Part shown: positions 2,287 through 21,942 of the stretch, one piece after another
Layout of the letters: the number at the start of each line of letters is the position of its first letter
How positions within the stretch are numbered: position 1 is the stretch's first letter
NCBI GenBank assembly: GCA_964431835.1
Contig: CAYSKO010000002.1
Location: forward strand, 22,802 to 86,801
Direction of reading: 5' to 3'
From: an uncultured Planctomycetia bacterium
GTDB taxonomy: Bacteria > Omnitrophota > Gorgyraeia > 2-02-FULL-51-18
DNA length: 64,000 bases
The notes under the pieces: model-generated
Seen by the model: only the letters and a program-made list of their open reading frames with translations
What the model was told of the DNA's origin: nothing
Databases searched by the model: none
Position numbers and translations under genes: made by a program

Positions 2287-3363
2287 ATGAACGTCATCGC
2301 GGTCTCCAATCAAAAGGGCGGGTGCGGCAAAACGACGACCGCGATCAATCTCGCGGCGTCGCTGGCGTCGCTCGGCCGCCGCACGCTTTTGATCGACCTC
2401 GACCCGCAAGCTCACGCGACGTTCGGATTGGGTTTCCGCGGCGAACCGCAGAGGCTCTCGATGTACAACGTGCTAACCGAGCAGGAAGGAAAGCGACAGA
2501 GCTTCCTCGAAAGCGTCATCGTTTCGGTTTCGGCGTGCTTCGACCTGGCGCCCTCGCATGTTCTTCTCAGCACAATCGAGCAAGAGTTCACGACCAAAGA
2601 CGAATCGATCCAGCGCCTGCGCGAACTCCTCTCAAGCCTGTCGTTTCCGTACGATTACGTCGTGATCGACTGTCCGCCCTCCCTCGGGTTCCTCACGTTC
2701 AACGCCCTCCGTGCGGCGGAGACCGTGATCGTGCCTATCGAGCTTTCTTCGTTCTCCTTGATGGGCGTGGGTAAGCTTCTCAGTATGATCGAGCTTCTGA
2801 AGGTGAAGCTACAGCACACGCCGCGCGTGTTTGCCCTGCCGACGATGATCGACATGCGCACGCGCTTCTCGCGCCGGATGATGGACGAAATCCGGGGGGC
2901 GTTCGGGGAGCACGTGCTGAACAGCGCGATCCGCCAGACGATCTCGATCCGCGAATCGCAGGCCGCAGGCCGGCCGGTCGTTTCTCTCGATCCAAAATCG
3001 AAGGGCGCGATCGACTATCTCGTCCTCGCACAGGAAATCGCAAACAAGCTTCCCTCGGCCGCCGCCTCGCAGATAGAGGCGCCTCCCGCGGTGACGCCTG
3101 CCGACCGTTTGAAAGACTTCTCATTCCGGGCGATGGGCGCGCGTGAAGTGCATGTGGTCGGCGACTTCAACAACTGGCGTGTTTCGACGAACTCGCTCCT
3201 CTGGCAGAAAGAAGAGGGTGTATGGCAGAAGAAAGTCCATCTCGGACCGGGGCGCTACCGCTACAAGTTCGTCGTGGACGGCCGTTGGACCACCGATCCC
3301 CGAAACCAGGAAATCGAACCCAATCCGTACGGCGGGGTCGACTCGGTCCTCGAAGTCGATTAA
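2287..3363 (+). CDS. ParA/MinD-family P-loop ATPase fused to a C-terminal AMPK-beta-type glycogen-binding module (CBM48)
   Basis: Deviant Walker A NQKGGCGKTTTAINLAASLA and a ParA-type Walker B region VVIDCPPSLGFL. C-terminal 80 aa (VHVVGDFNNWRV...RYRYKFVVDGRWTTDP) match the AMPK1_CBM/CBM48 consensus (VYVSGSFNNW...YKFFVDGQW..DP). Confidence 0.8.
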   Translation: MNVIAVSNQKGGCGKTTTAINLAASLASLGRRTLLIDLDPQAHATFGLGFRGEPQRLSMYNVLTEQEGKRQSFLESVIVSVSACFDLAPSHVLLSTIEQEFTTKDESIQRLRELLSSLSFPYDYVVIDCPPSLGFLTFNALRAAETVIVPIELSSFSLMGVGKLLSMIELLKVKLQHTPRVFALPTMIDMRTRFSRRMMDEIRGAFGEHVLNSAIRQTISIRESQAAGRPVVSLDPKSKGAIDYLVLAQEIANKLPSAAASQIEAPPAVTPADRLKDFSFRAMGAREVHVVGDFNNWRVSTNSLLWQKEEGVWQKKVHLGPGRYRYKFVVDGRWTTDPRNQEIEPNPYGGVDSVLEVD

Positions 3364-3919: not shown

Positions 3920-5004
3920 ACGACGCCAAGCGGTATCAGAGGGAAAAGCTGCGGCTTTATTTTCTCGGAGTCGCGGTCGATCTGTGTGCGCTCCTCGTCC
4001 TTCAGGCGACCGGCGCTTCGGAAAGGGTAGCCCTCGCCGCCGCCGGCGCTCCCTTCAGGCTCGCGGAAATTGCCCTCTACATGTTGGTTTTCTTCCATGG
4101 ACCCTGGCTCGCGGGGCTTCCACTCCGTTTCTACGCGGGCCACGTGGTGGAGCGGCGATGGAATCTCTCCACCCAAGCCTCCGGAGCGTGGTTCTTCGAC
4201 GAGTTTAAACGCTGGGTGCTGGGCCTCGCGTTCTTCGTGCCGACGATGACGGGACTCGTTTGGGTCATGGATTCCTGCGGATCCTCCTGGTGGATGGCGG
4301 CCGCGGCAGGATGGACGCTCGTCACGCTTTTTGTCTCCACGATCTTTCCGACCGTGATTATTCCTATTTTTTACCCGGTGAAACCCGTGACAGGTGAGTT
4401 GCGCGAGCGGATCGCCGAGCTTTTCGCGCGTTTCGGAGTCCGCCTCGTGGGCGTCTACGAACTCGCGCTGTCGAAGAAAACGAAGAAAGCCAACGCCATG
4501 CTTGCGGGGATCGGAAACGCGCGCCGCGTGTACCTTGGAGACACGCTTCTTGGCGGATTCGAGCCCGATGAAACACGGATGGTGGTCGCACATGAGCTCG
4601 GACATCACGTCCTCCGCCACATTCCGAAGGGACTCGCTTTCCATACCGTAGCCGCCGCAGCAGGTTTTTTTCTTCTCGACCGGATCGGCGGCCCCCTCGT
4701 ACGCGCTGCGGGTGGATACGCTCTTTGGGATCTCGCCGTTTTTCCAACCGTCGCCCTTCTTTCTACATTGGGCGCGCTCGCGTTCGTTCCCGCGCAGAAC
4801 GCGTTCTCCCGCCGCATGGAGTATGAAGCCGACGCGTTCGCCTTGAAAGCTTTCCCTTCGCGCGCAACGTTCGAATCGCTGATGCGCCGCCTGGCGTCGA
4901 AGAACCTTGCCGACACCGACCCCGACCCCTTCGTAGAATTCGTTTTTTACAGCCACCCGTCCATTTCGAACCGCGTGAAACGCGCGCAAAGTCTGCCGTC
5001 GTGA
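3916..5004 (+). CDS. M48-family zinc metallopeptidase (HtpX/Ste24-like), polytopic membrane protein
   Basis: Several TM segments plus HELGHHVLRH (HExxH) and a downstream Glu-containing motif (EYEADAFAL) typical of the M48 family. Confidence 0.7.
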   Translation: MNDAKRYQREKLRLYFLGVAVDLCALLVLQATGASERVALAAAGAPFRLAEIALYMLVFFHGPWLAGLPLRFYAGHVVERRWNLSTQASGAWFFDEFKRWVLGLAFFVPTMTGLVWVMDSCGSSWWMAAAAGWTLVTLFVSTIFPTVIIPIFYPVKPVTGELRERIAELFARFGVRLVGVYELALSKKTKKANAMLAGIGNARRVYLGDTLLGGFEPDETRMVVAHELGHHVLRHIPKGLAFHTVAAAAGFFLLDRIGGPLVRAAGGYALWDLAVFPTVALLSTLGALAFVPAQNAFSRRMEYEADAFALKAFPSRATFESLMRRLASKNLADTDPDPFVEFVFYSHPSISNRVKRAQSLPS

Positions 5005-5489
5005 AGCGACTAGGAGCGGTCTTCCTCGCGCTGTCGCTTTTGACGGGAACGCCGGCGGGAGCAGAGGGCCGCCGTCAGGCGATCGTCTCCTGGGTAATCG
5101 ACGGCGACACGTTCCAGACCTCCGATGGCGAGCGGGTGCGCCTTTTGGGCATCGATTCCCCGGAATACCAGCCGCATCGCCGGAAGATCGATCCGTTCGG
5201 CAAGGAAGCGTCGGAATTTGCCAAAAAAACGCTCACCGGGAAGAAGGTGCTCCTCGAAGGGGACGTGGAACCCAAGGACAAGTACGGCCGGACGCTCGCG
5301 TACGTGTATCTTCCTGACGGGACCTTCGTGAACGAGAGCATCGTCGCCCAAGGACTCGCCAAAAGCCGCTATTACAAGCCCAACGGAAAGCACCGCGAGG
5401 AACTGAAAGCGGCTCAAAAGGCGGCTAAGAAGGCCAAGAAGGGCATTTGGAGCCTCGAGGCGTCTTCCGCCGGGCGCGGGTCTTCTTGA
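5001..5489 (+). CDS. Secreted thermonuclease (SNase/micrococcal nuclease family)
   Basis: Signal peptide followed by the SNase motifs VIDGDTF...RVRLLGIDSPE...GRTLAYVY. Confidence 0.8.
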   Translation: MKRLGAVFLALSLLTGTPAGAEGRRQAIVSWVIDGDTFQTSDGERVRLLGIDSPEYQPHRRKIDPFGKEASEFAKKTLTGKKVLLEGDVEPKDKYGRTLAYVYLPDGTFVNESIVAQGLAKSRYYKPNGKHREELKAAQKAAKKAKKGIWSLEASSAGRGSS

Positions 5490-5534
5490 TAATTGGGACG
5501 AAAGGGTTTAAAATGTCCTCAAAAAGGTCCCTTT

Positions 5535-6128
5535 ATGATTAAAGAAGCCAAAATTTCCTCGGTAGTTTCTCTTTTTCCGCTGCCGCAGTACGTCGTCGTG
5601 CTCGAGGACGTGCAGAAGACACGGCTCGTCCCTATCTGGATCGGCGTGAACGAGGGGAACGCCATCGCGCTCGAGATGCAGGGCGAAAAGTTTCCGCGCC
5701 CCCTGACGCACGACCTCATGGTGAATATGCTGAAGACACTCGGCGCCGAGATCGAGAAGGTCGTCGTCAGCGATCTCCGCGACAACAGCTACTACGCGAT
5801 CATTTTCGTGAAACACGACGGGAAGACGATCGAGATCGACGCGCGGCCGTCGGACTCCCTGGCGCTGGCCGTGCGCGTGCACTGCCCGATTTTCATCGAC
5901 GAGAAAGTGTTGAACAAGTGCCCCCAGATCGACGGCTCGATTACGCAGGACGACGTTGATAAGTTCAAGGACATGCTGAAGACGATGTCCTCGGAAGAGT
6001 TCTTTAAGACTCTGGAAGAATCTCCCGCGGCGGACGGCCCCGATCTCAAGGCTTTCTCCGCGTTCGGCGAGGACGAGGAAGATGACGAGGAAACCGAAGA
6101 CGAAGAGGAAGAAGATGACGAGCGCTGA
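5535..6128 (+). CDS. Bifunctional nuclease domain protein (DUF151/BFN) with an acidic C-terminal tail
   Basis: LVPIWIGVNEGNAIALEMQGEKFPRPLTHDLM is the hallmark BFN motif. Start chosen at MIKEAK; the ORF-track start at 5493 is also possible. C-terminal poly-Glu/Asp tail. Confidence 0.6.
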   Translation: MIKEAKISSVVSLFPLPQYVVVLEDVQKTRLVPIWIGVNEGNAIALEMQGEKFPRPLTHDLMVNMLKTLGAEIEKVVVSDLRDNSYYAIIFVKHDGKTIEIDARPSDSLALAVRVHCPIFIDEKVLNKCPQIDGSITQDDVDKFKDMLKTMSSEEFFKTLEESPAADGPDLKAFSAFGEDEEDDEETEDEEEEDDER

Positions 6129-6146: not shown

Positions 6147-7703
6147 GTGGGCGCTCAAGGGGTAGGGCTTTACTTCGACGCCAAGCGCGTCTATCTGGTC
6201 GAGCTCCGCAAGGAGTTCGGCGAAATCCATATTTCCCGTTCCGCCGAGATCGACGTCCCGCCTCCGGCATCCGGAATGCTCCATGAATTCGGCCCCGAGA
6301 CCTGGGAAGCCATCCGCCAGGCGTTCGACCGCACGAAGATCCAGTCGCGCAGTATCGCAATCGCGCTCCCCGAGCGCGAGATCATGGTCCGCTACTTCGA
6401 CATGCCGCTTTTGCCGAAAAAAGAACAGACGGCGGCGATCCGTTTCGAATCCCAAAAATACCTCCCGTTCGACGTCCGCGATCTTTACTCCGACTACGAA
6501 CTTTTTCCCGACAAACGCCACAAACGCATGGGTGTCGCTTTCCTGGCCTCGCGGAAGAAGATCGTCGACGACGTCGCGCACAATCTCGAGCAGATGGGTG
6601 TCCGCATCGCGGCGGTCGAGACCGTATCGGTCGCGCTCATCCGCACACTTCCTCCGGCGGCCGTAAAAACCGAGGTCCAGGCGCTCGTGTCGATCGACCG
6701 GGACGGCGCGCTCACGACCGTCGTCTTCCGCGGCAAGTCGATTCTCATGTCGCGCTCGAGCGCTCCGCGTCCCGCGCCGCTCGGCGTCGCCGCGACCGCG
6801 CCCTCGGAAGAGGTCGTCGCGGAAATCCGCCTGGCGTTCAATTATTTCTCCAAAAGCTTCAAGGGTGAGCCGATCAAACGGATGCTCGTGAGCGTGGATC
6901 CGGGCGAGGAGCTGATCGGCTGGGAGGAGCTGCTTCAACGCGAATTCGGGCTACCCGTTTCGACGATCAACGCCATCCATACGCTCGGCCGCACGAAGAC
7001 CGTTTCCCCGGGTATGGCCGTCGCCATCGGCGCGGCGCTCCGCTGGGTGATGCGCGATGCGAAGGTGAACCTGCTTCCGCACACGACCGCCAAGCGGGTC
7101 GAGAGCCAGTCGCTTTCCCCGGAAGAGGAGAAGGAAGTCCTGCAGAAATGGGCCATCCGCTTCGCGATCGCGGGCCTGGTGGCGCTGGTGGCTCTGCATT
7201 TCGCGCTGGGCGCGCAGCTCGACGACCGCAAGAAGAAGCTCGACGCGGCCCGCCGCTCCCCGGCGCGCGCGGCCACCGCCAACGCGGGCATGTCGCCCGA
7301 TCAGTTGAAACAGCGCGAAGCCGCGATCAATAAGAAGCTGGTTTTCCTTTCGAATGTCTTCGAAAAGCGCGTTCTGGTCACCTCTAAACTCGTCGAGGCG
7401 GCGCGCGCGCTGCCCGAGGAAGTCCGCCTCTCCTCGCTGGATTATTCGGATCCCGGAGACAGGGAAGGCAAGTCATTCCCGACCATGAAACTCGAGGGGA
7501 TGATCTCGCTCAGCAATTCCGGGAGCGAGCTCGCACTGGCGAACCGGTTCGTCACGGCGCTCAAGGAAAACGAGGCCTTCACGCGCGGATTCGCGGACGT
7601 CAAGCTGACGGCGGTCCGCAAGAGCGTTCCGGCTCAGGACCAAGTCGCCGCGCGGCCCGGTTATGTGAGCGTCGACTGCGTGCCCGTGGAGGTGCGTGGC
7701 TGA
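6147..7703 (+). CDS. pilM: Type IV pilus assembly protein: PilM (actin-like ATPase fold) fused to PilN (TM plus periplasmic domain)
   Basis: N-terminal 350 aa are PilM-like. A TM helix (WAIRFAIAGLVALVALHFALGAQL) follows, then a PilN-like periplasmic region. TGATG overlap with pilO. Confidence 0.75.
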   Translation: MGAQGVGLYFDAKRVYLVELRKEFGEIHISRSAEIDVPPPASGMLHEFGPETWEAIRQAFDRTKIQSRSIAIALPEREIMVRYFDMPLLPKKEQTAAIRFESQKYLPFDVRDLYSDYELFPDKRHKRMGVAFLASRKKIVDDVAHNLEQMGVRIAAVETVSVALIRTLPPAAVKTEVQALVSIDRDGALTTVVFRGKSILMSRSSAPRPAPLGVAATAPSEEVVAEIRLAFNYFSKSFKGEPIKRMLVSVDPGEELIGWEELLQREFGLPVSTINAIHTLGRTKTVSPGMAVAIGAALRWVMRDAKVNLLPHTTAKRVESQSLSPEEEKEVLQKWAIRFAIAGLVALVALHFALGAQLDDRKKKLDAARRSPARAATANAGMSPDQLKQREAAINKKLVFLSNVFEKRVLVTSKLVEAARALPEEVRLSSLDYSDPGDREGKSFPTMKLEGMISLSNSGSELALANRFVTALKENEAFTRGFADVKLTAVRKSVPAQDQVAARPGYVSVDCVPVEVRG

Positions 7704-8634: not shown

Positions 8635-10374
8635 ATGCGTAATTTGAGGAAGTTTATAAACGTTTTTTTAATCGTTTTCTCAACCGTCGCGAACCCTTGC
8701 GCGATCCTCGCGGAAGAATTGGAAGAAGCGGAGGGCGAGGCCGACGTCGCGACGGCGGTGCGCGGCGAAGACAATCTCGTTTCGATGAACTTTGACGGTG
8801 CGCAGCTACGCGACGTGCTGAAGATTCTTTCCCAGCAGTCCGGCCTTAATTTCGTGGCGAGCGAAGACGTCGAATCGAAGAAGGTGACGGTTCTCTTGGA
8901 GGACGTTCCTGTCGGCGACGCACTTGAGAGCATCGTGCGCGCGAATTCCCTCCGCTACGAACGAAAGCCCGGCTCCAACGTCTTTGAGGTCTCCGCCGCG
9001 GAAGACACCTCGGGCGGCGTCCAGACGCGCGTCTTCATGCTCCGCTACACGCGTCTTTCGATTTCTCCTCTGGACGTGGGCGGTCAGAGCGCGATTAATG
9101 ATCTCCTCAAACCCGAAGAAGTCAGTGCCATCACGGCATCAGCCGGAGGCGCGGGCGCGGCAGCGGGCGCCGGAGCGGCGGGCGCCGAGTCGACCGGCAC
9201 GGAACTTGCGCTGGTCGCCGAACGCGGCGTCGATAAGATCGTCGCGACGCTCCTTTCCGAGACCGGAAAAGTCACGGTCGACATCCACACCAACAGCTTG
9301 ATCGTCACGGACGCCCCAGCCGTCCTCACAAAGATCGAGAAAGTACTCGAGAAGATCGACGTACCCACGCGTCAGGTCATGATCGAGTGCCACTTGATCG
9401 AGGTCTCAAAGACGGTGCTCGATGACCACGGCGTCGATTGGGGCGGCGCGAACGGCGCGCTCCTGGCGTTCGAGGGCGCCGACCGCTCGACTGCGTTTCC
9501 TTTCGCGGAGAGCATTTTCACGAACAGCTCCGAGCTTCGCGCCGCAACCCGGCCGAAGTCTGCGATCACGATGGGAACGGTCAGCGCAGAAAACTTCAGC
9601 GCAACGCTCCGCTTCATCACGAGCCAGTCCGATTCGAAAATCCTCGCGCGTCCGCGCGTGCTCACCCTGAACAACGAAGCCGCCAATATCCGTCTCGTCA
9701 CGAGCGCGGCGATCGCGCGCACCTCGACCATCACGGCGTCCGAAGGCATTACGACGCTCCAGACGGGCCAAGCCTCGCGGACAGACGTCGGCATCAGCCT
9801 GCGCATGACTCCCCAGGTGAACGAAAACCGCACGATCACGCTCTTCGTCGAGCCCTCTGTGACGACGGTCGCGGCGTCGACGTTCTTCCCGTCGGATTTC
9901 CTCGACCCCACCACCCGGTCGGTGCGGACGATGGCTCGCGTAAAGGACCATGAAACGCTCGTGATCGGCGGCCTCATCGACCGCAACCATTCACTTACCG
10001 ACAAACGGATCCCGGGACTCGGAAGCATTCCGTTCTTCGGCAACGCGTTCGCCTACAAAGAGCGCGGCAAGGCCGACCGCGAGCTGATCATCTTTATCAC
10101 GCCCCACATCGTGGAAGGGTACGACAGTCTGGCCGCGCAGAGCGCGACCGCGCCGGGCCGCGACACGGCGGTACGCCGCACCCTCGATTACTTCGTGAAA
10201 GAAGAAATGGAGCTCGCCACGGACCCGCTCGAGGACGCTGGTGCGGCACGCTTTCCGATCGACCGCCAGGAAAAGGCGATGCTCAAGCAGAGCGCCAAGC
10301 GCCCGGTCGCACCCTCCCTCGAGAAGGAAATGAGCCGCGCGCTCGATTCGCTCAGCCAAAAGAACGCGAAGTAA
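8635..10374 (+). CDS. pilQ: Type IV pilus secretin PilQ
   Basis: Secretin C-domain signature (TLVIGGLIDRNHSLTDKRIPGLGSIPFFGNAFAYKERGKADRELIIFITPHIV), N-terminal secretin/STN-like domains and a Gly/Ala-rich linker. Confidence 0.85.
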   Translation: MRNLRKFINVFLIVFSTVANPCAILAEELEEAEGEADVATAVRGEDNLVSMNFDGAQLRDVLKILSQQSGLNFVASEDVESKKVTVLLEDVPVGDALESIVRANSLRYERKPGSNVFEVSAAEDTSGGVQTRVFMLRYTRLSISPLDVGGQSAINDLLKPEEVSAITASAGGAGAAAGAGAAGAESTGTELALVAERGVDKIVATLLSETGKVTVDIHTNSLIVTDAPAVLTKIEKVLEKIDVPTRQVMIECHLIEVSKTVLDDHGVDWGGANGALLAFEGADRSTAFPFAESIFTNSSELRAATRPKSAITMGTVSAENFSATLRFITSQSDSKILARPRVLTLNNEAANIRLVTSAAIARTSTITASEGITTLQTGQASRTDVGISLRMTPQVNENRTITLFVEPSVTTVAASTFFPSDFLDPTTRSVRTMARVKDHETLVIGGLIDRNHSLTDKRIPGLGSIPFFGNAFAYKERGKADRELIIFITPHIVEGYDSLAAQSATAPGRDTAVRRTLDYFVKEEMELATDPLEDAGAARFPIDRQEKAMLKQSAKRPVAPSLEKEMSRALDSLSQKNAK

Positions 10375-13857: not shown

Positions 13858-13903
13858 CGGAAAGCCAAGCGGTCCTTACAGGCCGCTTGGCTTTTCTTTT
13901 TTG
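13858..13903 (+). terminator. Rho-independent terminator after the major pilin gene
   Basis: Perfect hairpin aaagccaagcgg...ccgcttggcttt followed by tcttttttg. Confidence 0.65.
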
Positions 13904-13915
13904 AGGGCCCGAAGC

Positions 13916-14326
13916 GTGCGAAACAGTCAAGATGGAATGACTTTGACGGAGATCACGATCGTCTCCGTGATCCTCGTGATGATGGCGGGCCTGGCGATTC
14001 CCAGTTATTTCAAAACCGTCGAGGAATCCCGCTCGAGCGAAGCGAAGGCGAATTTGAGCACGCTCCATTTCGCGCAGAAAATCTTTCGCGAGAGCAACTC
14101 GGCGAAGAAATTTTATCCCGTCGGCGGCGGGACGAAGACCACGACCTCCGACCTCACCGAAATCACGACCCAGCTGAACGTCGATATTTCCCCGAATTTT
14201 TATAATATCGAGATCGAAACCGCCGGTGGCGGAAGCACCACCGACTACACAGCGACCGCCACTCGCTCGAACGACTCGACCCGCAGATACCGAGTAGACG
14301 AATCCGGCGTCGTCATCAAGCTCTAA
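13916..14326 (+). CDS. Minor (pseudo)pilin with prepilin-type N-terminus, GTG start
   Basis: Short leader MRNSQDG then MTLTEITIVSVILVMMAGLAIPSYF (Gly-1, Glu+5). First gene of a seven-gene overlapping operon. Confidence 0.65.
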   Translation: MRNSQDGMTLTEITIVSVILVMMAGLAIPSYFKTVEESRSSEAKANLSTLHFAQKIFRESNSAKKFYPVGGGTKTTTSDLTEITTQLNVDISPNFYNIEIETAGGGSTTDYTATATRSNDSTRRYRVDESGVVIKL

Positions 14327-14336
14327 GGGAGCCGTT

Positions 14337-15473
14337 ATGAGGAAAGTCCCAGCTGTTCCGAAAGCGCCGATCCTGGCGCTTTTTATGCTTTCCGCGGTGT
14401 CCGCGGCCCTCGCGACGGACGTGGATAAATCCACGGAATATCCCGTGCCGTCCGGCATCTACGACGGGATCACTGTTTCTCGCTACCTCCGCATGGGAAT
14501 TCCCACGGCCGCGGTTCCCGACGTGGACGCCCACACCCCGAACGCCGGCACGGCAAATCCGGCGACCGCCTCCCAGGCGGCCCTGACCATCAACGGCAAC
14601 GTTTATATCCATCCGCTCGATCTCAATCTCACGGACGCGCAGCCGCCGGTCCCTTACGTGCCCCTGGATACCGACGGCGGCGCCGGAGCCACAGTACCGC
14701 TTCGCGACGTGGTCATCGACGAGAAGCTGACGGTGGACGGCACGACGTTCCGCGTCGTTCCGCTCAATTGGTGGGGCAATAGCCACTGGACTGCCGTGAA
14801 TGTCCCCGGTGCCGTCACTGGTGACAGCCGCGGCAGCGAATTCCAGGTCAACGGTGACATTCACGCCTACGCGTATCGCGCTTCCCAGAGGTATCCCGAT
14901 CAAAACGACACGCGCGTCCATTTCGGGCCAACGAAGGTAAGCGGTGTCTCGTGGCTCGACATGCGGGCCAAGACAGGCATGATCGACGCCAATCAGTGGG
15001 CGCACGGCATGAGCACGCTTTATTTCCGTGCCGATCCGATGCTCGTTTTGAACGGCTACTCGCGAGCCAACGTCGGTATCGGCACGACGAATCCCACTTA
15101 TCTTCTGCAGGTGGGCGATCCGGGCTCCGGCCTGCAGGCGATCGCGCATTCATGGGACATTTATAGCTCGCGCGCCTACAAAACCGACATCCGCCCTTTT
15201 TCGCCCGCCGATTACAGATTGGCCGCCGACAGAGTGGGGGATCTGAACCTCGTTCGTTTCCGTTACAAAGAGGACAAGCCAGGCGACAAGAAAATACTCG
15301 GATTCATCGCCGAGGAAGCTCCAAATGAAATTCTCTCACCGGACGGCAAAGCCGTGAGCCTCGGGGACACGCTGGGTTTCCTGCTGGCGGCCATCAAAGG
15401 CCTCAAAGCCGAAAACGACGCGCTCCGGACCGAGATCGAGCGGCTCGAAACCGCCGGGGGGAGGCTTTTGTGA
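14337..15473 (+). CDS. Secreted tail-fibre-like protein with C-terminal peptidase S74 intramolecular-chaperone domain (paralogue 1 of 3)
   Basis: Sec signal peptide. Tail-fibre motif ANVGIGTTNPTYLLQV, then the S74 Ser/Lys dyad context SWDIYSSRAYKTDI, LGFIAEEAPNEILSPDG and a C-terminal coiled coil LKAENDALRTEIERLE. 4-nt overlap with the next gene. Confidence 0.75.
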   Translation: MRKVPAVPKAPILALFMLSAVSAALATDVDKSTEYPVPSGIYDGITVSRYLRMGIPTAAVPDVDAHTPNAGTANPATASQAALTINGNVYIHPLDLNLTDAQPPVPYVPLDTDGGAGATVPLRDVVIDEKLTVDGTTFRVVPLNWWGNSHWTAVNVPGAVTGDSRGSEFQVNGDIHAYAYRASQRYPDQNDTRVHFGPTKVSGVSWLDMRAKTGMIDANQWAHGMSTLYFRADPMLVLNGYSRANVGIGTTNPTYLLQVGDPGSGLQAIAHSWDIYSSRAYKTDIRPFSPADYRLAADRVGDLNLVRFRYKEDKPGDKKILGFIAEEAPNEILSPDGKAVSLGDTLGFLLAAIKGLKAENDALRTEIERLETAGGRLL

Positions 15474-16591
15474 GGCGGCTCGCTTTCATCCTCCTCTTGG
15501 GTTTCGCACTGACGCAGGACGCGCGCGCGGCCGAAATCGACGTTACCACGTATTACGACGCCCCTTTCGGCGATTACAAAGAATTCCGGCTCTCCGGCAC
15601 TCTCGCCGCAGGGCTCGTCGACGCCGATCCGGGTCCTCTTTTGATCGGCGCCGGAAGCTACACGGCCGCTTTCTTCGGCGGCTTCAACGTGTGGAACAAT
15701 GACATTCCCGGGCACCTCGGGGCGAGCCGCGGCGGAGGGCTCACGGTCACGGGAAATCTCGACATTCAGGACGCCCTCGGGATCTCGCTTCTTTACGTGA
15801 ACGCGACGACCGACCGCGTCGGCATCGGGACGCGGGCGCCCGCAGCGGCGCTCGACGTGCGCGGCGAAGCCAAGGCGATCAACCTCTTCGCGTATGCGTC
15901 TCCGCTCGACCCGACCCAGCCGTACGCGGAAATGAACACCGAGGTCACGCCAGAGCGCTTCGGGGCGGGCTACTGGTGGAACCAGACGTTCCCGCATAGA
16001 TACCGTTTCTGCACGATGCACATCGACGGCGATCCGATCGCGATCCAATCGATCGACAAGAGTGCGATGGGGCTGGGAGGCTTGGGCCGAGGCCAGCTCA
16101 TCATAAACGGCATGCCCGTCGGCTACGTCACGTACGACGCGAAAGTGATTCTCGTTGTGGGAGAACCCCAGCAGAACCAAGTCCTCGACCCCGATCCCGA
16201 CGAGGCTACCGGTGACGGAGACGGGGATCCGAATCAGGGCGACTATCCCGTGGCGCTGCCGAAGCCGCAGGCCTTCGCCCATCAGTGGTATCAGTTCAGT
16301 TCCCGCGAGTACAAAAAGGACATCGTGCCTTTGATGCCCGCGGAGTATGGCACGATTCTCTCTTCGCTTGCGGTGATGGATGTCGTTCGCTACCGTTTCC
16401 ATTCGGAAAGCGGCACGACGAAACCGCACGTCGGGTTGATCGCCGAAGACGTGCCCGAGGACATGGCGCAGTCCGACCGCAAATCCATCGGACTAGGCGA
16501 GCAGGCCGCGTTTCTCCTGGCGTCCGCTAAAGCGCTCAGGGGCGAACAGGACGACATGCGCGCCCGCGTCGAAAGGCTGAAAAAATCATGA
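15470..16591 (+). CDS. Secreted tail-fibre-like protein with C-terminal peptidase S74 intramolecular-chaperone domain (paralogue 2 of 3)
   Basis: Signal peptide; DRVGIGTRAPAAALDV; QWYQFSSREYKKDIVP; VGLIAEDVPEDM; LRGEQDDMRARVERL. 4-nt overlaps on both sides. Confidence 0.75.
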   Translation: MRRLAFILLLGFALTQDARAAEIDVTTYYDAPFGDYKEFRLSGTLAAGLVDADPGPLLIGAGSYTAAFFGGFNVWNNDIPGHLGASRGGGLTVTGNLDIQDALGISLLYVNATTDRVGIGTRAPAAALDVRGEAKAINLFAYASPLDPTQPYAEMNTEVTPERFGAGYWWNQTFPHRYRFCTMHIDGDPIAIQSIDKSAMGLGGLGRGQLIINGMPVGYVTYDAKVILVVGEPQQNQVLDPDPDEATGDGDGDPNQGDYPVALPKPQAFAHQWYQFSSREYKKDIVPLMPAEYGTILSSLAVMDVVRYRFHSESGTTKPHVGLIAEDVPEDMAQSDRKSIGLGEQAAFLLASAKALRGEQDDMRARVERLKKS

Positions 16592-17754
16592 ACGCGCGCT
16601 TTTTCGCAACGATCGCTCTTGCCGCATTCATCGCAGCGCCTTTGCCGGCGCTGGCGGACGACGTGACGGTTCGAACGACCTATCCGAACCGCTTCGGCGA
16701 ACACACGAACGCCGACACCGAAAGCTCTCTAACGGTGGGGTCTCTCACGCAGGGCGCCTCGACGAACGTCTTCGGGGACGTCTCGATCGTGGGCGATCTC
16801 GTCATCACGAAGCCGACGAACGGCCTCGTACGCATCGCCCCCTCGCACGGCCCTTACCAGGAAGACGGCCTGCGCGTGCACCCCAACGGAAGCATTTCGA
16901 TCGGCAGCAACGTCGTCCTGCCGGCCGCGAATCCGCCCAAACTAAAGTCCCATACGACGCTGAAGGGCCGCCGACTTTACGCGTACGGCGATCCCGCGGA
17001 CACACACACGGTGTACGGGCTCATGCAGGGGTATCTCGATACTTCAGCAAGTTCCTATCATCTCCAGCGCAAAGCGCTCTTCGCGTCGCGTCCTGTCGCC
17101 GGCGGCAACATCATCGATCCCGCCGCCGGAACGTACGGGCCTCTCCGCATCGACGGCAGAGAAGTGCAAATGGGCCCACAGTACGATCCGAACGTACCGA
17201 CGGGACGTGGAAACCCCTCCGATCCTTGGTTTACAGGAATGCTCGAGCGGGTCATCATCGGCACGAACGAGATGTGGCTCGATCCGGTCGATACGCCGGA
17301 ACCTGAGATTTTCCTTCAGGTGGGCCATCCGACCGATCCCGACCCCACCGATCCCGAGCGCATCCCCGGCATAAACGGTGCTCCAGACGAGCCGCCGCAG
17401 CCGACCGGCGGCGCGGCGAGTAACTGGCGGGTTTTCAGCTCGCGTGAGTATAAGAAGGACATCGTGCCGTTCGACGCCGCCGCGCAGGCGGGCGCGCTCG
17501 AGGCGATCTCCCGGCTCGACGTGGTCCGCTACCGCTTTAAGAGCGAGCCCGTGAACGCCAAGCCGCATACCGGCGTGATCGCGGAGGACCTCCCCGCCGC
17601 CATCCGCTCGGCGAGCGGCAAAGGCCTGGACCTTGGCCAGGCGTATTCCTACGCCGCGGCGGCGCTCAAAGCGCTGAAGACCGAGAACGACGTGCTCAAG
17701 ACCCGTCTCGAAAAGCTCGAAGCGGAAGCGGCGGCCCGAAAGGCGCGGCCGTGA
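16588..17754 (+). CDS. Secreted tail-fibre-like protein with C-terminal peptidase S74 intramolecular-chaperone domain (paralogue 3 of 3)
   Basis: Signal peptide; NWRVFSSREYKKDIVPF; TGVIAEDLPAAI; LKALKTENDVLKTRLEKLE. The C-terminus is closely related to paralogue 2. Confidence 0.75.
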   Translation: MNARFFATIALAAFIAAPLPALADDVTVRTTYPNRFGEHTNADTESSLTVGSLTQGASTNVFGDVSIVGDLVITKPTNGLVRIAPSHGPYQEDGLRVHPNGSISIGSNVVLPAANPPKLKSHTTLKGRRLYAYGDPADTHTVYGLMQGYLDTSASSYHLQRKALFASRPVAGGNIIDPAAGTYGPLRIDGREVQMGPQYDPNVPTGRGNPSDPWFTGMLERVIIGTNEMWLDPVDTPEPEIFLQVGHPTDPDPTDPERIPGINGAPDEPPQPTGGAASNWRVFSSREYKKDIVPFDAAAQAGALEAISRLDVVRYRFKSEPVNAKPHTGVIAEDLPAAIRSASGKGLDLGQAYSYAAAALKALKTENDVLKTRLEKLEAEAAARKARP

Positions 17755-18101
17755 AACTCTCCTCGGCGCGTGGTCTTACGCTCGTCGAGATCGTGATATC
17801 CGCTCTTCTTATTTCGACCGTCATGGCGCTTCTTTTGAACGCGTTCGTAAACGCCAGTAAATGGATTTCTCCCGAGAACAACATCGCTCACGGCCTCGCG
17901 CGCGAGAAATTGGAGAATCTTCTGGAAGAGGTCCGCCAGGACCGTTGGGACGACGCGGCTCGGCGCCTGCATCCCGATTACGATCCGCCGTCCGAAGCTC
18001 TCACGTTGAACGCCGTCGCCTACACGCGCGACTACGACGTGGAGGCTGTGACCGGGAGGCCCTACCGCAAAGCGAAGGTGACCGTCCAATGGCCTTCTTA
18101 A
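17751..18101 (+). CDS. Minor (pseudo)pilin, prepilin-type N-terminus
   Basis: MKLSSARG then LTLVEIVISALLISTVMALLL (Gly-1, Glu+5). Confidence 0.65.
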   Translation: MKLSSARGLTLVEIVISALLISTVMALLLNAFVNASKWISPENNIAHGLAREKLENLLEEVRQDRWDDAARRLHPDYDPPSEALTLNAVAYTRDYDVEAVTGRPYRKAKVTVQWPS

Positions 18102-18733
18102 AATCTTCCCGCGGCGTCACGCTGGTGGAAATCGTCATCGCGGTTCTCCTCATCTCGGTGATCTTCCTCGGGTCGACGACGGTCTACGTGACCGCACTCA
18201 AATTCTTCAACGCTGTCCGCGACAAGTCGCCGCAGGTTTACGGCTTTCTCGCCGCCGAGACGGTCGTCCGGAAAGTCGCGGTCGCGAGTGAGGCTATCGT
18301 GAACGACTCGGGCTCCTCGAACGGCGCGTCGACCTTGGACGCGGATGGCCTGAACTACGTGACCGGTAAACAGATCAAGATCCGCTGGGATTTCACCCTC
18401 GCTGATTGGACGCCGCTCAACACGCCTTCCAACACCGCGGACGATACGTGGGTGAAATACAAGATCATCGAGAATCCCGGCGGTTCCGGGACCTACCGAC
18501 TTTACACGCGCAAGGACGCGAGCGTCACGGCCGACGTCACGACCGCTGACGAAGAAGTGGACACGCTTCTCACGCTAGGAGCCAATTCCGTGTTCCGCCT
18601 TTCAAGCCCGAGCGGCAACGCCGAAGGTGCGGCGACCACGGTGGATGTGCATCTGGAAACCGTCGGAGGCAGCTCGTCCCAGACGGTCGTGATCCATACC
18701 GACACCGCCGTGGGCGGGGGCGCCAAAAGATGA
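18089..18733 (+). CDS. Minor (pseudo)pilin, prepilin-type N-terminus
   Basis: MAFLKSSRG then VTLVEIVIAVLLISVIFLG. Start is placed at the internal ATG of the longer ORF-track call (17861), to avoid a long overlap and to give a canonical leader. Confidence 0.65.
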   Translation: MAFLKSSRGVTLVEIVIAVLLISVIFLGSTTVYVTALKFFNAVRDKSPQVYGFLAAETVVRKVAVASEAIVNDSGSSNGASTLDADGLNYVTGKQIKIRWDFTLADWTPLNTPSNTADDTWVKYKIIENPGGSGTYRLYTRKDASVTADVTTADEEVDTLLTLGANSVFRLSSPSGNAEGAATTVDVHLETVGGSSSQTVVIHTDTAVGGGAKR

Positions 18734-19125
18734 AACCGAGACCCTCGAGCGATTCCGGGCTCGTCCTCACGATCGTCGTAATCACGATCCTCATGATGCT
18801 CGGGCTTGTGGCCGCCGTCCTCAGCCTGGCGGCGAACCAGCGCCTCCTTTCCGACGAATTGAGCTCCCGGCACGTGCGCGCCTATTACCGGGCGAGGGGA
18901 GGGGTTGTGGAGGCTCGCTGGCGCATCCGGAACGACCAGACTGCGGACATCGGGGGAGGCGGGACGTTCACGAACGCCGCCTATAATCCGGCCCCTTACT
19001 TCATCGATCTCGACGCGAACGCCGTCCACACCGCACGAACGGACGACGACGACGTGCGCGTGGACATCGGCGCGTTGGATGCAGCGACGGGCGTGCGCCC
19101 GGTCGAGGTTACGGGCTTCGAATAA
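18730..19125 (+). CDS. PilX-N-terminal-domain-like minor pilus protein
   Basis: GLVLTIVVITILMMLGLVAAVLSLAANQRLLSDE resembles the PilX_N hydrophobic segment. Last gene of the overlapping operon. Confidence 0.45.
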   Translation: MKPRPSSDSGLVLTIVVITILMMLGLVAAVLSLAANQRLLSDELSSRHVRAYYRARGGVVEARWRIRNDQTADIGGGGTFTNAAYNPAPYFIDLDANAVHTARTDDDDVRVDIGALDAATGVRPVEVTGFE

Positions 19126-19219: not shown

Positions 19220-20011
19220 TTGAGCAAACGGACATGGGCCGTCTTTCTCGCGGCCACCACATTCCTCATCACCGGATTCACCATCTTCCTCCTTTATAAC
19301 AGCCGGGAGGCCGAGAAGAAGATCCGCGTCCAGAAGGAGGTCGAGCTTTCCAAGAAGATGGTGGAGCTCACCGAGAAGCAGGGGCAGATATCCACTCTCC
19401 TCAAGCAGAAGCTCGATCTCGAAGAACAGTTCCACGTCAAGATCGCCTCGCTCGAGACGACCATCAAGGATTATGAGGAAAACTCCAAGGCCGCTGCGGC
19501 GCGTATGGAGGCGGTGCTCGAGGAGAACGAAACCCTGAAGCGCGACTTATCCGCGCGGGACAAGAAGATGTCCGACCTGACCCGCCGCATGCGCACTCTT
19601 GAATCCGACAAAACGGACCTTCTCGAATCCCTTTCCAAGAAGGCCACCGCGAAGGCCACCGAGAACGCTTCCTCAGCCGTCCCTGCCGGAGACGAGCGTC
19701 CCGCCGTGACGGGCGATTTCGGCGCGCCCGAGGTGAACCCGGTGAAGCTCGGCAAGATCGTGGTTCAGAAATCGTCCGGCCGCGCGGCGCGGGTCGAACA
19801 CATTGACAAACTTTACGGATTCATCGTCATCAACGCCGGCGCGAAGGACGGTCTTCGTGCGAATTCGGTCGTGAACATCGTCCGCGGGAACAAGCTCATC
19901 GGCAAGGCGGTCGTTCAAAAGGTACGCCCCGACATCTCGGCCGCGACGGTGATGTCCGAATGGACGCGCGACGAGATCAAAGTCGGCGACATGGTTAGCC
20001 GGTTTTCCTAA
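19220..20011 (+). CDS. Membrane-anchored coiled-coil protein with a C-terminal beta-rich domain (hypothetical)
   Basis: N-terminal TM, about 130 aa of heptad-rich coiled coil, and a C-terminal domain KLGKIVVQK...VVNIVRGNKLIGKAVVQKV. Confidence 0.45.
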   Translation: MSKRTWAVFLAATTFLITGFTIFLLYNSREAEKKIRVQKEVELSKKMVELTEKQGQISTLLKQKLDLEEQFHVKIASLETTIKDYEENSKAAAARMEAVLEENETLKRDLSARDKKMSDLTRRMRTLESDKTDLLESLSKKATAKATENASSAVPAGDERPAVTGDFGAPEVNPVKLGKIVVQKSSGRAARVEHIDKLYGFIVINAGAKDGLRANSVVNIVRGNKLIGKAVVQKVRPDISAATVMSEWTRDEIKVGDMVSRFS

Positions 20012-20065
20012 AGTCCGGGGCCGCCTCCCTTGTCCGGCGCCCTTTTTCGTGGTTTACTTCTTAAG

Positions 20066-20776
20066 ATGAAACTTCCCCCCTTAGCCTCCGCGCTCGCGGC
20101 CGTCACTACTCTTGTTTGCGTCTCCATGCCCGCTTTCGCGGACGTCGTCCGCCTCAAGAACGGGCGAGACCTTTCCGGAACCGTTTCCAAGGCCAACGAC
20201 GGCACGCTCGCGCTTGCGATCGCCGGCGGCGTCGTAAAGCTCGATCCGGAAGACGTCGAATGGACGGTCCGCGGCACGGACGAGGAAATTGAGGGCAAAC
20301 GCCGCGCGGCCTCTCAGTACGAGCGCGCCGAGCTGGCACGCGAAGCGGGGAATTGGGTCGTGGCAGCCGAAGCGTACGAGCGTGCCGCCGAACTCACGGC
20401 GAGCGCCGATCTTTTGAACAACGCAGGCACGGCCTGGGCACAGGCGGGGAACATCGACCGCGCCGTGCCGCAATTTCGCCGGGCCCTTTCCGAGAATCCT
20501 TCCCATGCGGCCGCGCGGCGCAATCTCGCAGCGGCTCTCCGCGAACGCGGCGCGGCGTCCTACGCCAAAGGCGAATTCGAAGCCGCGCTCCTTTTGTGGC
20601 GCGAGGCGTTGAGGCTTTCCGGCGGCGGCGCCGATCTTCTGAACGACTTGGGCTCTTCGCATGGCATGCTCGGCAACCGTGCGGCCGCCGAGCGCTTCTA
20701 CAAGAAGGCGCTCCGCGTCGCGGCGGGCCACGGGACGGCCTCGCGGAATCTGCGTACGCTGGCGGGGAACGCGTGA
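20066..20776 (+). CDS. Secreted TPR-repeat protein
   Basis: Signal peptide MKLPPLASALAAVTTLVCVSMPAFA; TPR-like Ala-rich helical repeats. GTGA overlap with the next gene. The ORF-track start at 20030 is an alternative. Confidence 0.55.
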   Translation: MKLPPLASALAAVTTLVCVSMPAFADVVRLKNGRDLSGTVSKANDGTLALAIAGGVVKLDPEDVEWTVRGTDEEIEGKRRAASQYERAELAREAGNWVVAAEAYERAAELTASADLLNNAGTAWAQAGNIDRAVPQFRRALSENPSHAAARRNLAAALRERGAASYAKGEFEAALLLWREALRLSGGGADLLNDLGSSHGMLGNRAAAERFYKKALRVAAGHGTASRNLRTLAGNA

Positions 20777-21942
20777 AACGCGCCCGCGGGTTCACGCTCG
20801 TCGAGATTCTGATCGCCGTCACGGTGCTCGGCGTGCTGACGGCTCTGGCGTCCATCACCTATTTCCGCCACCGCGAGAACGCGATTCGCGCCGAGGCGCT
20901 CATCAACATGGACGCCATCCGCCGCGCCGAGCTCCTCGAGCACGAGGCGACCGGGACCTACGCGAACGCCGGCGACACCGCCGCGATCAACGGCCAGTTC
21001 GGCCTCGGCATCACCGAGCATCATTATTCCTACAGCGTGGTCGACGCCACCGACAACGATTTCCGGATCGTCGCCCAGAGACTCGGTTCACTGGGGGACG
21101 AGGGCTTGCCGGTTCTGCTGGCGATGGCACCGAGCGGGGAAATATTCGGAGCACCGGTGCCGCCCGCGGTGCCAGAAGCTCCCGGAGTCCGTCCGACGAC
21201 GTCCGGCGGCGGGTCCGCCGGCGGCGTTTCGTCCGGAGGCGGAGGCGGCAGTGGCATGCCTTCCGGCCAAACCGGAGGTGGCGGCGCCACGGGACGCACC
21301 GGTGGCGGCTCGGTCAGCGGCGCGGCGGGGAACGTGCCGGGAGCCGGCGGCGACCGGCCGCTCGTGTACATTCCGCGGGGTCTCGACGTCTGGGACAACT
21401 GGCCCGACGAAAACGAGATCAACGTCGACGGTCCCGTCGGTGAAGCCTCGCTTCTCGAGGCCTTCACGCTGATACAGAACGAATCGTCGACTTCCGCCAC
21501 GACCGCGGATCTTTTCCGAAAAGCAGTGTCCATTTCGTTTGGCGCGGCGGCGCTCTTCTTGGAAGACGCGCCCTGCGAATTCGCTTACGCCTGCTTTGTT
21601 CCGTCTCCTCTTTCGGTGCCGCCGGATACGCCCGCTCCACTGCCGCAGATTCTCTTCAACCCGGATTACGTCGATGAGGAACCCGAAGCGCTCGCCGCGA
21701 TCCTCGTCCACGAGGGCACTCACCTCCAGCAGTATCTCGACGCGACTCTCTTCGACGACGAGTTGGACGTGATCGACATCGAGTTCACCGCTTTTTGGAA
21801 TTCGGCTGTTTACTGGAAAGAAGTCCGCGCCGAGCAGCTGCCTGCGGACACCGACCTCGAAGAGGATTTGGAATTCATCTACCAGACGGCCCTCCTGGGC
21901 GAGGCCGCCATGCGGGCTCTCATCGACGCGCGTTACCCGTGA
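20773..21942 (+). CDS. Prepilin-type protein fused to a Gly-rich linker and a C-terminal HExxH (putative zinc metalloprotease-like) domain, GTG start
   Basis: VKRARG then FTLVEILIAVTVLGVLTALASITYF (canonical class III signal). About 60 aa of Gly/Ser-rich linker. C-terminal domain carries HEGTHLQQ and downstream acidic residues (DIEFTAF). Confidence 0.65.
   Translation: MKRARGFTLVEILIAVTVLGVLTALASITYFRHRENAIRAEALINMDAIRRAELLEHEATGTYANAGDTAAINGQFGLGITEHHYSYSVVDATDNDFRIVAQRLGSLGDEGLPVLLAMAPSGEIFGAPVPPAVPEAPGVRPTTSGGGSAGGVSSGGGGGSGMPSGQTGGGGATGRTGGGSVSGAAGNVPGAGGDRPLVYIPRGLDVWDNWPDENEINVDGPVGEASLLEAFTLIQNESSTSATTADLFRKAVSISFGAAALFLEDAPCEFAYACFVPSPLSVPPDTPAPLPQILFNPDYVDEEPEALAAILVHEGTHLQQYLDATLFDDELDVIDIEFTAFWNSAVYWKEVRAEQLPADTDLEEDLEFIYQTALLGEAAMRALIDARYP

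Follow-up and report, generated by a model that had tools for sequence, protein, structure and literature searches.

We describe three adjacent genes, here called A, B and C, in a 64 kb window of DNA (the whole stretch analysed, 64,000 nucleotides) from an uncultured bacterium, most likely a member of the Omnitrophota. The Omnitrophota are a widespread uncultured phylum, inferred to be predatory or parasitic. Each gene encodes a short protein that resembles a phage tail fibre and ends in a Peptidase_S74 intramolecular-chaperone (ICA) domain, and the three lie together in a type IV filament operon, among its pilin and minor-pilin genes. They are a conserved, dedicated component of that operon, and sequence evidence favours assembly of their products into one heterotrimer containing a single copy of each chain.

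Three S74 genes in a pilin operon

14337..15473, + strand: fibre chain A, 378 amino acids (aa); Pfam PF13884, 35.0 bits; orthogroup A
15470..16591, + strand: fibre chain B, 373 aa; Pfam PF13884, 28.3 bits; orthogroup B
16588..17754, + strand: fibre chain C, 388 aa; Pfam PF13884, 42.9 bits; orthogroup C

A sequence-only reading of this DNA had described three consecutive open reading frames (ORFs) of 378, 373 and 388 aa with Sec leaders and had placed them in the S74 family. The ORF listing bears out the first description, as do the leaders, which we read by eye: all three have a basic n-region and a hydrophobic core, with apparent cleavage sites at ALA/TD, ARA/AE and ALA/DD in A, B and C, respectively (slash, cleavage point), and none has a lipobox cysteine or a prepilin G/E+5 motif. 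The family assignment also holds. A, B and C alike match the Peptidase_S74 / intramolecular-chaperone profile above its gathering score of 22 bits, and their orthologues match it too. All three also give weak matches to PHROGs tail-fibre families, which in chain B fall on residues 91-156, and none matches an NCBIfam model.

The catalytic features of an S74 domain, which that reading had pointed out, are present in every chain. The Ser/Lys dyad consists of Ser277 (nt 15165-15167) and Lys282 in the SSRAYK motif of chain A, Ser277 (nt 16298-16300) and Lys282 in the SSREYK motif of chain B, and Ser284 (nt 17437-17439) and Lys289 in the SSREYK motif of chain C. The serine thus stands five residues before the lysine in each case, the same Ser-x4-Lys spacing as in endoNF (S911/K916) and MyRF (S587/K592). 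A G(F/L/V)IAE(E/D)xP block and a C-terminal heptad helix, the expected coiled coil, complete the domain in all three proteins. The claim that each chain carries an NVGIGTTNP motif ahead of the S74 domain stands for A, where NVGIGTTNP..LLQVG immediately precedes it. It fails for B, which has RVGIGTRAP in mid-protein (~residues 116-124), and for C, which has a degenerate VGIG-type copy only. What the three do have in common upstream of the cleavage site is an ..L(Q/V)VG. element.

The chaperone modules are not near-identical, as had been supposed. The paralogues are ~36-37% identical over the C-terminal domain and ~20% over the mature part. Chain A has the N-terminal motif STEYPVPSGIY and an acidic heptad helix at residues 348-372. 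Chain B has TTYYDAPFGDY and a helix that is basic at g19/e24 and ends early. Chain C has TTYPNRFGEH and a helix with basic e17/g19 and acidic e24.

The genes are tightly packed. Overlaps of 4 nt were said to join the fibre genes to each other and to the pilin-type genes on both sides; we find them at five junctions, running from A/B and B/C through C/minor pilin 1 to minor pilins 1/2 and 2/3 (through 19125). The junction between A and the upstream pilin gene is different: 10 nt, with GGGAG as a Shine-Dalgarno sequence, lie between the pilin stop (14326) and the start of A (14337). The G+C content is flat over the region, with A, B and C the same as their flanks.

A predicted ICA fold at the C terminus

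We obtained an AlphaFold2 (AF2) model of chain A from a 58-sequence alignment. Its predicted local distance difference test score (pLDDT) is 72.6 overall and exceeds 90 at residues 291-370. A Foldseek comparison with the PDB returned as its top match the ICA domain of MyRF (7dc3, E 4e-4), followed by the intramolecular chaperone of endoNF (3gw6), so that in the predicted model the C-terminal domain has the ICA fold. In BFVD there were 50 matches at E<=1e-3, and the named ones are phage or giant-virus S74/tail-fibre proteins. Searching the PDB by sequence with the family profile retrieved MyRF only, and weakly (E 0.0075).

A three-gene module conserved across 12 loci

When 1.84 billion cluster representatives were searched exhaustively with HMMER, 176 proteins matched at E<1e-30, of which ~59 are full-length family members (315-413 aa); a word-indexed protein search with chain C had returned 2 relatives only. 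From context look-ups and scans of sequence collections we assembled 12 independent loci with the same arrangement: pilin, pilin, three S74 genes, three minor pilins. They are the window, L001, L004, L013, L015, L016, L017, L018, L019, L026, L031 and L105; the window locus is identical to L002 and L003, and L013 is identical to L014 and L025. The number of S74 genes is exactly three in 12/12, and the genes for PilMN, PilO, a protein of no known family, secretin, ATPase and platform lie upstream in every locus whose contig reaches there. The A/B overlap is 4 nt in nine of the 12 loci and 1-20 nt in the remaining three, and most other junctions overlap as well.

The wider surroundings are chromosomal. 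L105 is a 1.59 Mb contig of a metagenome-assembled genome (MAG) labelled 'Candidatus Omnitrophica bacterium', and it shares with the window an upstream order of RmuC, ParA-like, M48 peptidase, staphylococcal nuclease and bifunctional nuclease (BFN) genes; housekeeping flanks are syntenic among the window, L013 and L105. L004 carries the label Candidatus Eisenbacteria. The annotated flanks of the 12 loci contain no phage genes. In the window, likewise, none lies near the three genes (~14 kb upstream and ~7 kb downstream covered), as the sequence-only reading had stated, and the locus holds no phage or prophage structural module.

Linkage to pilins is a property of this family. As a control we took 80 metagenome loci with an S74 domain carrying the motif SSRx[YF]K[KT]DI. 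A prepilin-type ORF was found in the flanks of three of the 80, all of them full-length family members, and of none of the other 77, which argues that the linkage is specific to the A/B/C family and not shared by S74 proteins at large. The S74 genes lie beside pilin genes, in the same orientation, in 12/12 family loci, against 0/77 controls with a prepilin neighbour.

The three chains are also old. Pairwise identity is 36-74% within orthogroups and 21-30% between them, and every locus has one chain from each of orthogroups A, B and C. Gene order is A-B-C everywhere but in L018 (7988-11261), where it is B-like, A-like, C-like. One chain per orthogroup at each locus implies that the triplication is older than the divergence of the 12 genomes and that the copy number has not changed since. 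The dyad is intact in 26 of 27 individually inspected chains and is visible in alignments of a further nine, those of L026, L031 and L105. Several family members (for example P0076, P0090 and P0165) have cysteine for the nucleophile serine (CSRxxK), a replacement expected at a nucleophile position.

Some relatives depart from the common plan. In L004 the major pilin gene is present three times in tandem, almost unchanged from copy to copy, upstream of the module (14-1427), and L019 has four pilin-type genes there. In P0072 (449 aa), an A-type chain, a C-terminal extension that ends ...VFVDGDFWHGRQW... (Vsr/DUF559-like) takes the place of the coiled coil, probably through gene fusion or as an assembly artefact. 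We also considered S74 proteins of Saccharibacteria/Patescibacteria (SSREYKKD) as candidates for pilus linkage and rejected them: no pilin is found on the visible side in L005-L012, except in L010, where one lies 9 kb off. Among these candidate phyla radiation (CPR) proteins, those of L007 (157-3888), L008 (81-3035) and L009 (55-3825), from Saccharibacteria/Portnoybacteria MAGs, are 984-1256 aa long and have the S74 cleavage motif at least 300 residues from the C terminus, so that the S74 domain is internal.

A charge code that favours an ABC heterotrimer

All characterised S74/ICA proteins are homotrimeric (PMC10769870, PMC8326128). In the crystal structure solved for MyRF's ICA domain, trimerization is driven by a parallel triple coiled coil that the C-terminal helices form, with g-e' salt bridges (PMC8326128). 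The C-terminal helices of A, B and C have Leu at d and Ile, Asn or Val at a positions, and differ by chain type in the charges that flank this core:

chain A: g12 E, e17 E or K, g19 E, e24 E
chain B: g12 E, e17 K or R, g19 R, e24 K
chain C: g12 R or E, e17 K, g19 R, e24 E

These chain-type-specific charges hold among 56 cluster representatives. We scored g(i)->e'(i+5) charge pairs and summed the scores over the 12 triads. The cyclic order A>B>C>A gives +65 and the reverse order A>C>B>A gives +3; the homotrimers give -33 (AAA), +3 (BBB) and +27 (CCC). Controls for register, spacing and choice of columns were run on 11 triads (without L105), for which A>B>C>A sums to 61. Shifting the register or altering the spacing abolishes the signal (scores of -20 to +20), and random column pairs have a mean of 0.5 and a standard deviation of 12.2, with P(>=61) ~5e-5.

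C g12 and A e17 bear opposite charges in 11 of the 12 triads (the exception is L018), and they do so in two ways: C g12 is E with A e17 K or R in the window, L001, L013 and L105, and C g12 is R with A e17 E in seven others. Two swapped states of one pair of positions indicate compensatory change across paralogues. The few stand-alone S74 proteins that can be placed in the same register are self-complementary, mostly at +1 to +2 per interface. Co-assembly into heterotrimers, which the sequence-only reading had raised as a possibility, is therefore supported by a register-specific coiled-coil charge code, and this code favours an ABC heterotrimer in the order A>B>C>A.

An N-terminal motif common to the three chains

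Directly after the leader, all three chain types carry the motif (D/E)V.(V/L).T.YP.P(Y/F)G.Y, in a region where AF2 confidence is low (residues 26-35). By analogy with TcpF and CofJ, discussed below, we propose that the fibre may be joined to its carrier through this motif. A stronger form, TITTYYPSPYGSY, heads 19 of 151 other S74 proteins in our hit lists. We had considered TTYYPxPxGxY as a general marker of pilus-linked fibres; P0049 (Elusimicrobiota), P0161 and P0182, the three motif-bearing S74 proteins whose surroundings we looked at, have no adjoining pilin genes and rule this out. Its presence away from pilin genes means that the motif by itself does not mark a pilus operon; as judged from the sequences, it is the mark of a broader group of bacterial S74 fibres exported by Sec.

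Proteins with TITTYYPSPYGSY occur in other lineages at L021 (686-3662), L022 and L023 (1084-4999), and also as P0026 and P0104, often as tandem pairs and with no adjoining pilin genes.

The host operon and its filament machine

A full set of genes for a type IV filament machine is found upstream of the fibre genes, and pilin-type genes flank the three on both sides:

6147..7703, + strand: PilM-PilN fusion (GspL/MshI-like assembly protein), 518 aa; Pfam PilM_2; TIGR01175 pilM, 69 bits
7703..8233, + strand: PilO / GspM-like protein, 176 aa; Pfam T2SSM_b, PilO; NF040576 GspM, 53 bits
8233..8634, + strand: small conserved machine protein, 133 aa; no significant family match
8635..10374, + strand: outer-membrane secretin, 579 aa; Pfam Secretin_N, Secretin; GspD 217, PilQ 205 bits
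10377..12089, + strand: assembly ATPase with N-terminal MshEN c-di-GMP-binding domain, 570 aa; PilB 623, GspE 593 bits
12093..13304, + strand: inner-membrane platform protein (PilC/GspF), 403 aa; GspF 362, PilC 338 bits
13441..13851, + strand: major pilin/pseudopilin candidate, 136 aa, no cysteines; N_methyl 34.5 bits, ComP_DUS
13859..13906, + strand: terminator-like hairpin, 16 pairs (9 G-C), then T-run, directly 3' of the major pilin gene
13916..14326, + strand: second pilin (GspH/FimU-like position), 136 aa, leader MRNSQDG/MTLTE; N_methyl, ComP_DUS
17751..18101, + strand: minor pilin 1 (GspI/PilV-like size), 116 aa, G/LTLVE; weak N_methyl match, prepilin motif
18098..18733, + strand: minor pilin 2 (GspJ/PilW-like size), 211 aa, G/VTLVE; N_methyl 21.2 bits, prepilin motif
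18730..19125, + strand: minor-pilin-like protein 3, 131 aa, hydrophobic N terminus without Glu5 as in GspK/PilX; no family match
19220..20011, + strand: membrane-anchored coiled-coil protein with C-terminal beta domain, 263 aa, accessory; weak coiled-coil and MreC-barrel matches only

Most of these genes keep their positions in the related loci. The PilM-PilN fusion is at the same position in L013, L018 and L105, and a protein of similar size fills the slot of the small machine protein in L013, L018, L031 and L105. The slot of minor pilin 1 is conserved in every locus that reaches that far, and that of minor pilin 3 holds a 115-140 aa protein in L004, L013, L015, L017, L018, L019, L031 and L105. 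A 254-270 aa orthologue of the accessory coiled-coil protein follows the minor pilins in L004, L013, L015, L017, L019, L031 and L105, though not in L018. Named homologues of the ATPase at 54-67% identity all come from Candidatus Omnitrophica/Omnitrophota; with the Omnitrophica label of L105, this makes an Omnitrophota origin of the window most likely. The strong hairpin at 13859-13906, the only terminator-like site of its kind between there and 19125, suggests attenuated read-through from the major pilin into the second pilin, fibre and minor-pilin genes.

The sequence-only reading had likened the locus to a classical type IVa pilus (T4aP) operon in which the fibre genes take the place of PilY1. 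The machine does not bear this out. Models of the T4aP and of the type II secretion system (T2SS) score about equally, every component falls below the equivalog cut-offs of both, and the 64 kb window does not hold the set of equivalog-level matches and retraction ATPase that would mark a classical T4aP. The major pilin candidate matches the GspG and Myxococcus PilA models at ~43 bits each, and the ATPase matches the MshE-related cyclic di-GMP (c-di-GMP) motif NF053729 at 50 bits (cut-off 38). As judged from its sequences, the machine is intermediate, or ambiguous, between T4aP, T2SS and mannose-sensitive haemagglutinin (MSH) systems, and is not assignable to T4aP over T2SS. The comparison with the PilY1 position is loose: an H-like pilin precedes the fibre genes and I/J/K-like minor pilins follow them, and the fibre chains show no PilY1 homology.

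Discussion

We propose that the products of A, B and C make up a single short protein of the phage-tail-fibre type, one chain each, and that this protein serves a chromosomal type IV filament system as a dedicated part that is not itself a pilin. We give this reading a probability of about one half. From the sequences we infer self-cleavage, heterotrimer formation and contact with the minor pilins. The three chains would be co-transcribed with the minor pilins, translationally coupled and each exported by Sec. In the periplasm the S74/ICA domains would trimerize through a parallel triple coiled coil in which the g/e' charges select one A, one B and one C. By homology with characterised S74 proteins, the trimer would template the folding of the mature parts (~250 residues) and activate the Ser-Lys dyads, each of which would remove its own chaperone of ~100 residues. 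A priming complex of the three minor pilins could then take up the mature fibre, probably via the N-terminal motif, and the filament would push it out through the secretin. Outside the cell, the newly exposed C-terminal tip may act as an adhesin or receptor-binding device, with the filament ATPase under c-di-GMP control via its MshEN domain. A bolder version, which we think less likely than not, is that the fibre is obligately A-B-C, that the S74 domain specifies the heterotrimer, and that three N-terminal hooks dock one-to-one on the three I/J/K-like minor pilins, giving a phage-receptor-binding-like recognition device on the pili of ultra-small, host-dependent Omnitrophota.

Several observations weigh against this proposal or parts of it. 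In the window triad itself, CCC (9) scores above ABC (6), and in L105 the code is weak (ABC 4, against 3, 3 and 0 for the homotrimers). The charge statistics overstate independence, because the 12 genomes are related. The B chain of L017 (2630-3703) has ELNTFK in place of SSRxxK and so lacks the nucleophile serine; such a chain would be easier to tolerate in a mixed trimer, and it is a single case. The mature part, beta-rich over ~250 residues, has no confident fold match, as expected for a monomer model of an intertwined trimer, so that the label 'fibre' rests on the S74 context and the weak PHROG matches. The N-terminal motif is also found on P0049, P0161 and P0182, which have no pilin neighbours. 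Finally, the window contains no PilT or other retraction ATPase and the T2SS models score equally well. Release as secreted cargo is about as compatible with the data as display at a tip.

In an alternative view, the machine is T2SS-like and the S74 proteins are its dedicated cargo, which would fold and self-cleave in the periplasm, be carried out by a short pseudopilus and then be released or re-bound to the surface, without staying on the tip of a long pilus. The GspD, GspF and GspM models match at least as well as those of PilQ, PilC and PilO, the PilM-N fusion is GspL-like, and the major pilin is short and cysteine-free, like GspG. Together with the absence of PilT from the window, these features fit a secretion machine, and the operon-encoded TcpF and CofJ are secreted in this way by type IVb (T4b) pili. 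However, the best match of the ATPase is to the PilB model, its c-di-GMP domain is of the MshE type, as is usual for adhesive MSHA pili, the tandem major-pilin copies of L004 and L019 are more typical of exposed pili, and the Omnitrophota literature assigns such clusters to T4aP (PMC10066038). We regard dedicated T2SS cargo as possible, if on the unlikely side.

It is similarly doubtful, in our judgement, that A, B and C are three separate homotrimeric fibres of different specificity, displayed or secreted alternately by the same filament system. Every characterised S74/ICA protein is a homotrimer (PMC10769870, PMC8326128), chain C is self-compatible (+27 summed, 9 in the window) and B neutral, and the mature parts differ strongly at ~20% identity. 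Yet receptor-binding repertoires usually vary, whereas here 12/12 loci have exactly three copies, each with one-to-one orthologues. Chain A is self-repulsive at g-e' in 7 of the 12 genomes, down to -9; the cross-chain complementarity is register-specific; the charges of C g12 and A e17 have been swapped; mature lengths are similar within a genome; and the L017 B chain, without its nucleophile, is still retained in the triad. A correlation of mature length between chains is not part of this argument. We dropped it, as a regular expression had mis-placed several N-terminal motifs and n was small. It is very improbable that the three genes are a degenerate tail-fibre module of a prophage, or a mobile insertion, that came by chance to lie in a pilin operon and plays no part in the filament. 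The S74 domain and the VGIG repeats are typical of phage fibres, but all three chains have Sec-type leaders, no phage genes lie nearby, the G+C content equals that of the flanks and none of the 77 unrelated S74 loci has pilin neighbours. Moreover, the genes hold an identical position at all 12 loci despite divergence to 30-40% identity, and frames, dyads and overlapping stop-starts are intact. A search for this synteny had been suggested at the outset as a check, and conservation of the pilin-S74-minor pilin arrangement in 12/12 loci effectively refutes the reading as a prophage remnant or chance insertion.

The proposed ABC fibre combines traits of several known systems. Like the phage S74 fibres endoNF (the K1F endosialidase) and T5 pb1, the chains have a C-terminal S74/ICA domain with Ser-x4-Lys, a GxIAE block, a terminal helix and preceding VGIG-type repeats, and by analogy the N terminus would be proximal and the tip exposed after cleavage. 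They differ in being chromosomal and Sec-exported, with no virion genes nearby and only ~250 mature residues, and in forming a fixed set of three paralogues in a pilin operon for which a heterotrimer is predicted, whereas the phage proteins are homotrimeric. The MYRF ICA domain is likewise a homotrimer; it belongs to a eukaryotic membrane-bound transcription factor, faces the cytosol and is unrelated to secretion or filaments.

Sec-exported S74 fibres of bacterial, non-phage origin are not new, since the mosaic adhesive trimer (MAT) proteins of Bdellovibrio bacteriovorus are already known. These have a signal peptide, a conserved N-terminal element (a beta-rich domain of ~130 aa) and, in 13 of 21, a self-cleaving S74 domain (PMC10769870). 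The bacterium, which attacks other cells, uses them on its surface, and a connection with type IV pili is mentioned as possible by the authors of that study (PMC10769870). A signal peptide and an S74 domain are what MATs and A, B and C have in common. MATs are ~1,000 aa long, homotrimeric, numerous and not reported in pilin operons, whereas A, B and C are ~380 aa.

T4b pili offer a parallel for docking through the N terminus. TcpF of Vibrio cholerae (toxin-coregulated pilus) and CofJ of enterotoxigenic Escherichia coli (CFA/III) are operon-encoded, Sec-exported and secreted in a pilus-dependent manner (PMC9565799, PMC6048534, PMC10120004), and a flexible N terminus hooks each onto the trimeric minor pilin at the pilus tip (PMC9565799, PMC6048534). 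TcpF forms a trimer on the pilus tip. There is no sequence similarity and neither TcpF nor CofJ has an S74 domain; in T4b systems a single minor pilin makes up the homotrimer, whereas the A/B/C operon has three different minor pilins and three different chains.

The T4a tip adhesin PilY1/PilC is large, carries a signal peptide and is not a pilin; its gene lies among those for minor pilins, and the protein probably sits on the priming complex that these form. A, B and C give no Pfam or NCBIfam match to the PilY1 family at E<=0.1, and they differ from it in fold class, in gene position and in having three chains instead of one.

To our knowledge, S74-capped fibres from phages, giant viruses, Bdellovibrio and animals (MYRF) are always homotrimers and never fixed parts of a type IV filament operon. 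The sequence-only reading knew of no S74 protein in a pilus operon, and our literature searches agree, having found no published description of S74 or tail-fibre proteins in such operons. What is new here is a module fixed at three chains, sequence evidence for an ABC heterotrimer and a fixed place in a type IV filament operon. If our proposal is correct, A, B and C represent a new class of filament component, one that consists neither of pilins nor of proteins like PilY1, TcpF or CofJ, and would include the first natural heterotrimeric ICA chaperone, which could be useful for engineering ABC trimers. On the bolder version, they would also offer a candidate answer to the question of what anchors MAT-type fibres, and a molecular means by which uncultured Omnitrophota recognise host or prey cells. 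The main genomic study of the phylum counts T4aP clusters among symbiosis genes without a known adhesin and mentions neither fibres nor S74 domains (PMC10066038); A, B and C would be a concrete candidate for host recognition. Within the phylum, Velamenicoccus archaeovorus LiM reportedly expresses T4aP.

Other features of the window

Beyond the machine, the flanking genes encode RmuC, a ParA-like ATPase, an M48 peptidase, two nucleases and TPR, UvrD, MFS, HEAT, Rieske and cytochrome b proteins. An Rfam scan of the window gave no match.

A 389-aa protein encoded downstream of the operon (20773-21942, + strand) has a prepilin N terminus (RG/FTLVEIL), a long Gly/Ser-rich linker and a C-terminal HExxH (LVHEGTHLQ), and from these motifs may be a pilin-tethered metallopeptidase. 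Its gene, the preceding TPR gene (20030-20776) and the following gene for a 210-aa protein are missing from the otherwise syntenic L013.

Directly upstream of the machine are genes for a staphylococcal-nuclease homologue (5001-5489, + strand) and a protein with a BFN domain (5493-6128, + strand). Their adjacency to the machine is kept in L105 (both genes) and L013 (BFN only), and a link of the two nucleases (5001-6128) to DNA uptake or to degradation of prey DNA is possible. Further upstream, a ParA/MinD-like ATPase (2287-3363, + strand) is fused to a C-terminal glycogen-binding AMPK1_CBM/CBM48 domain, a fusion kept in the Omnitrophica contig (L105 1461-2546). Far from the cluster, at ~50564 on the - strand, there is a further prepilin-type N terminus, VG/FSLVEAMVAL.

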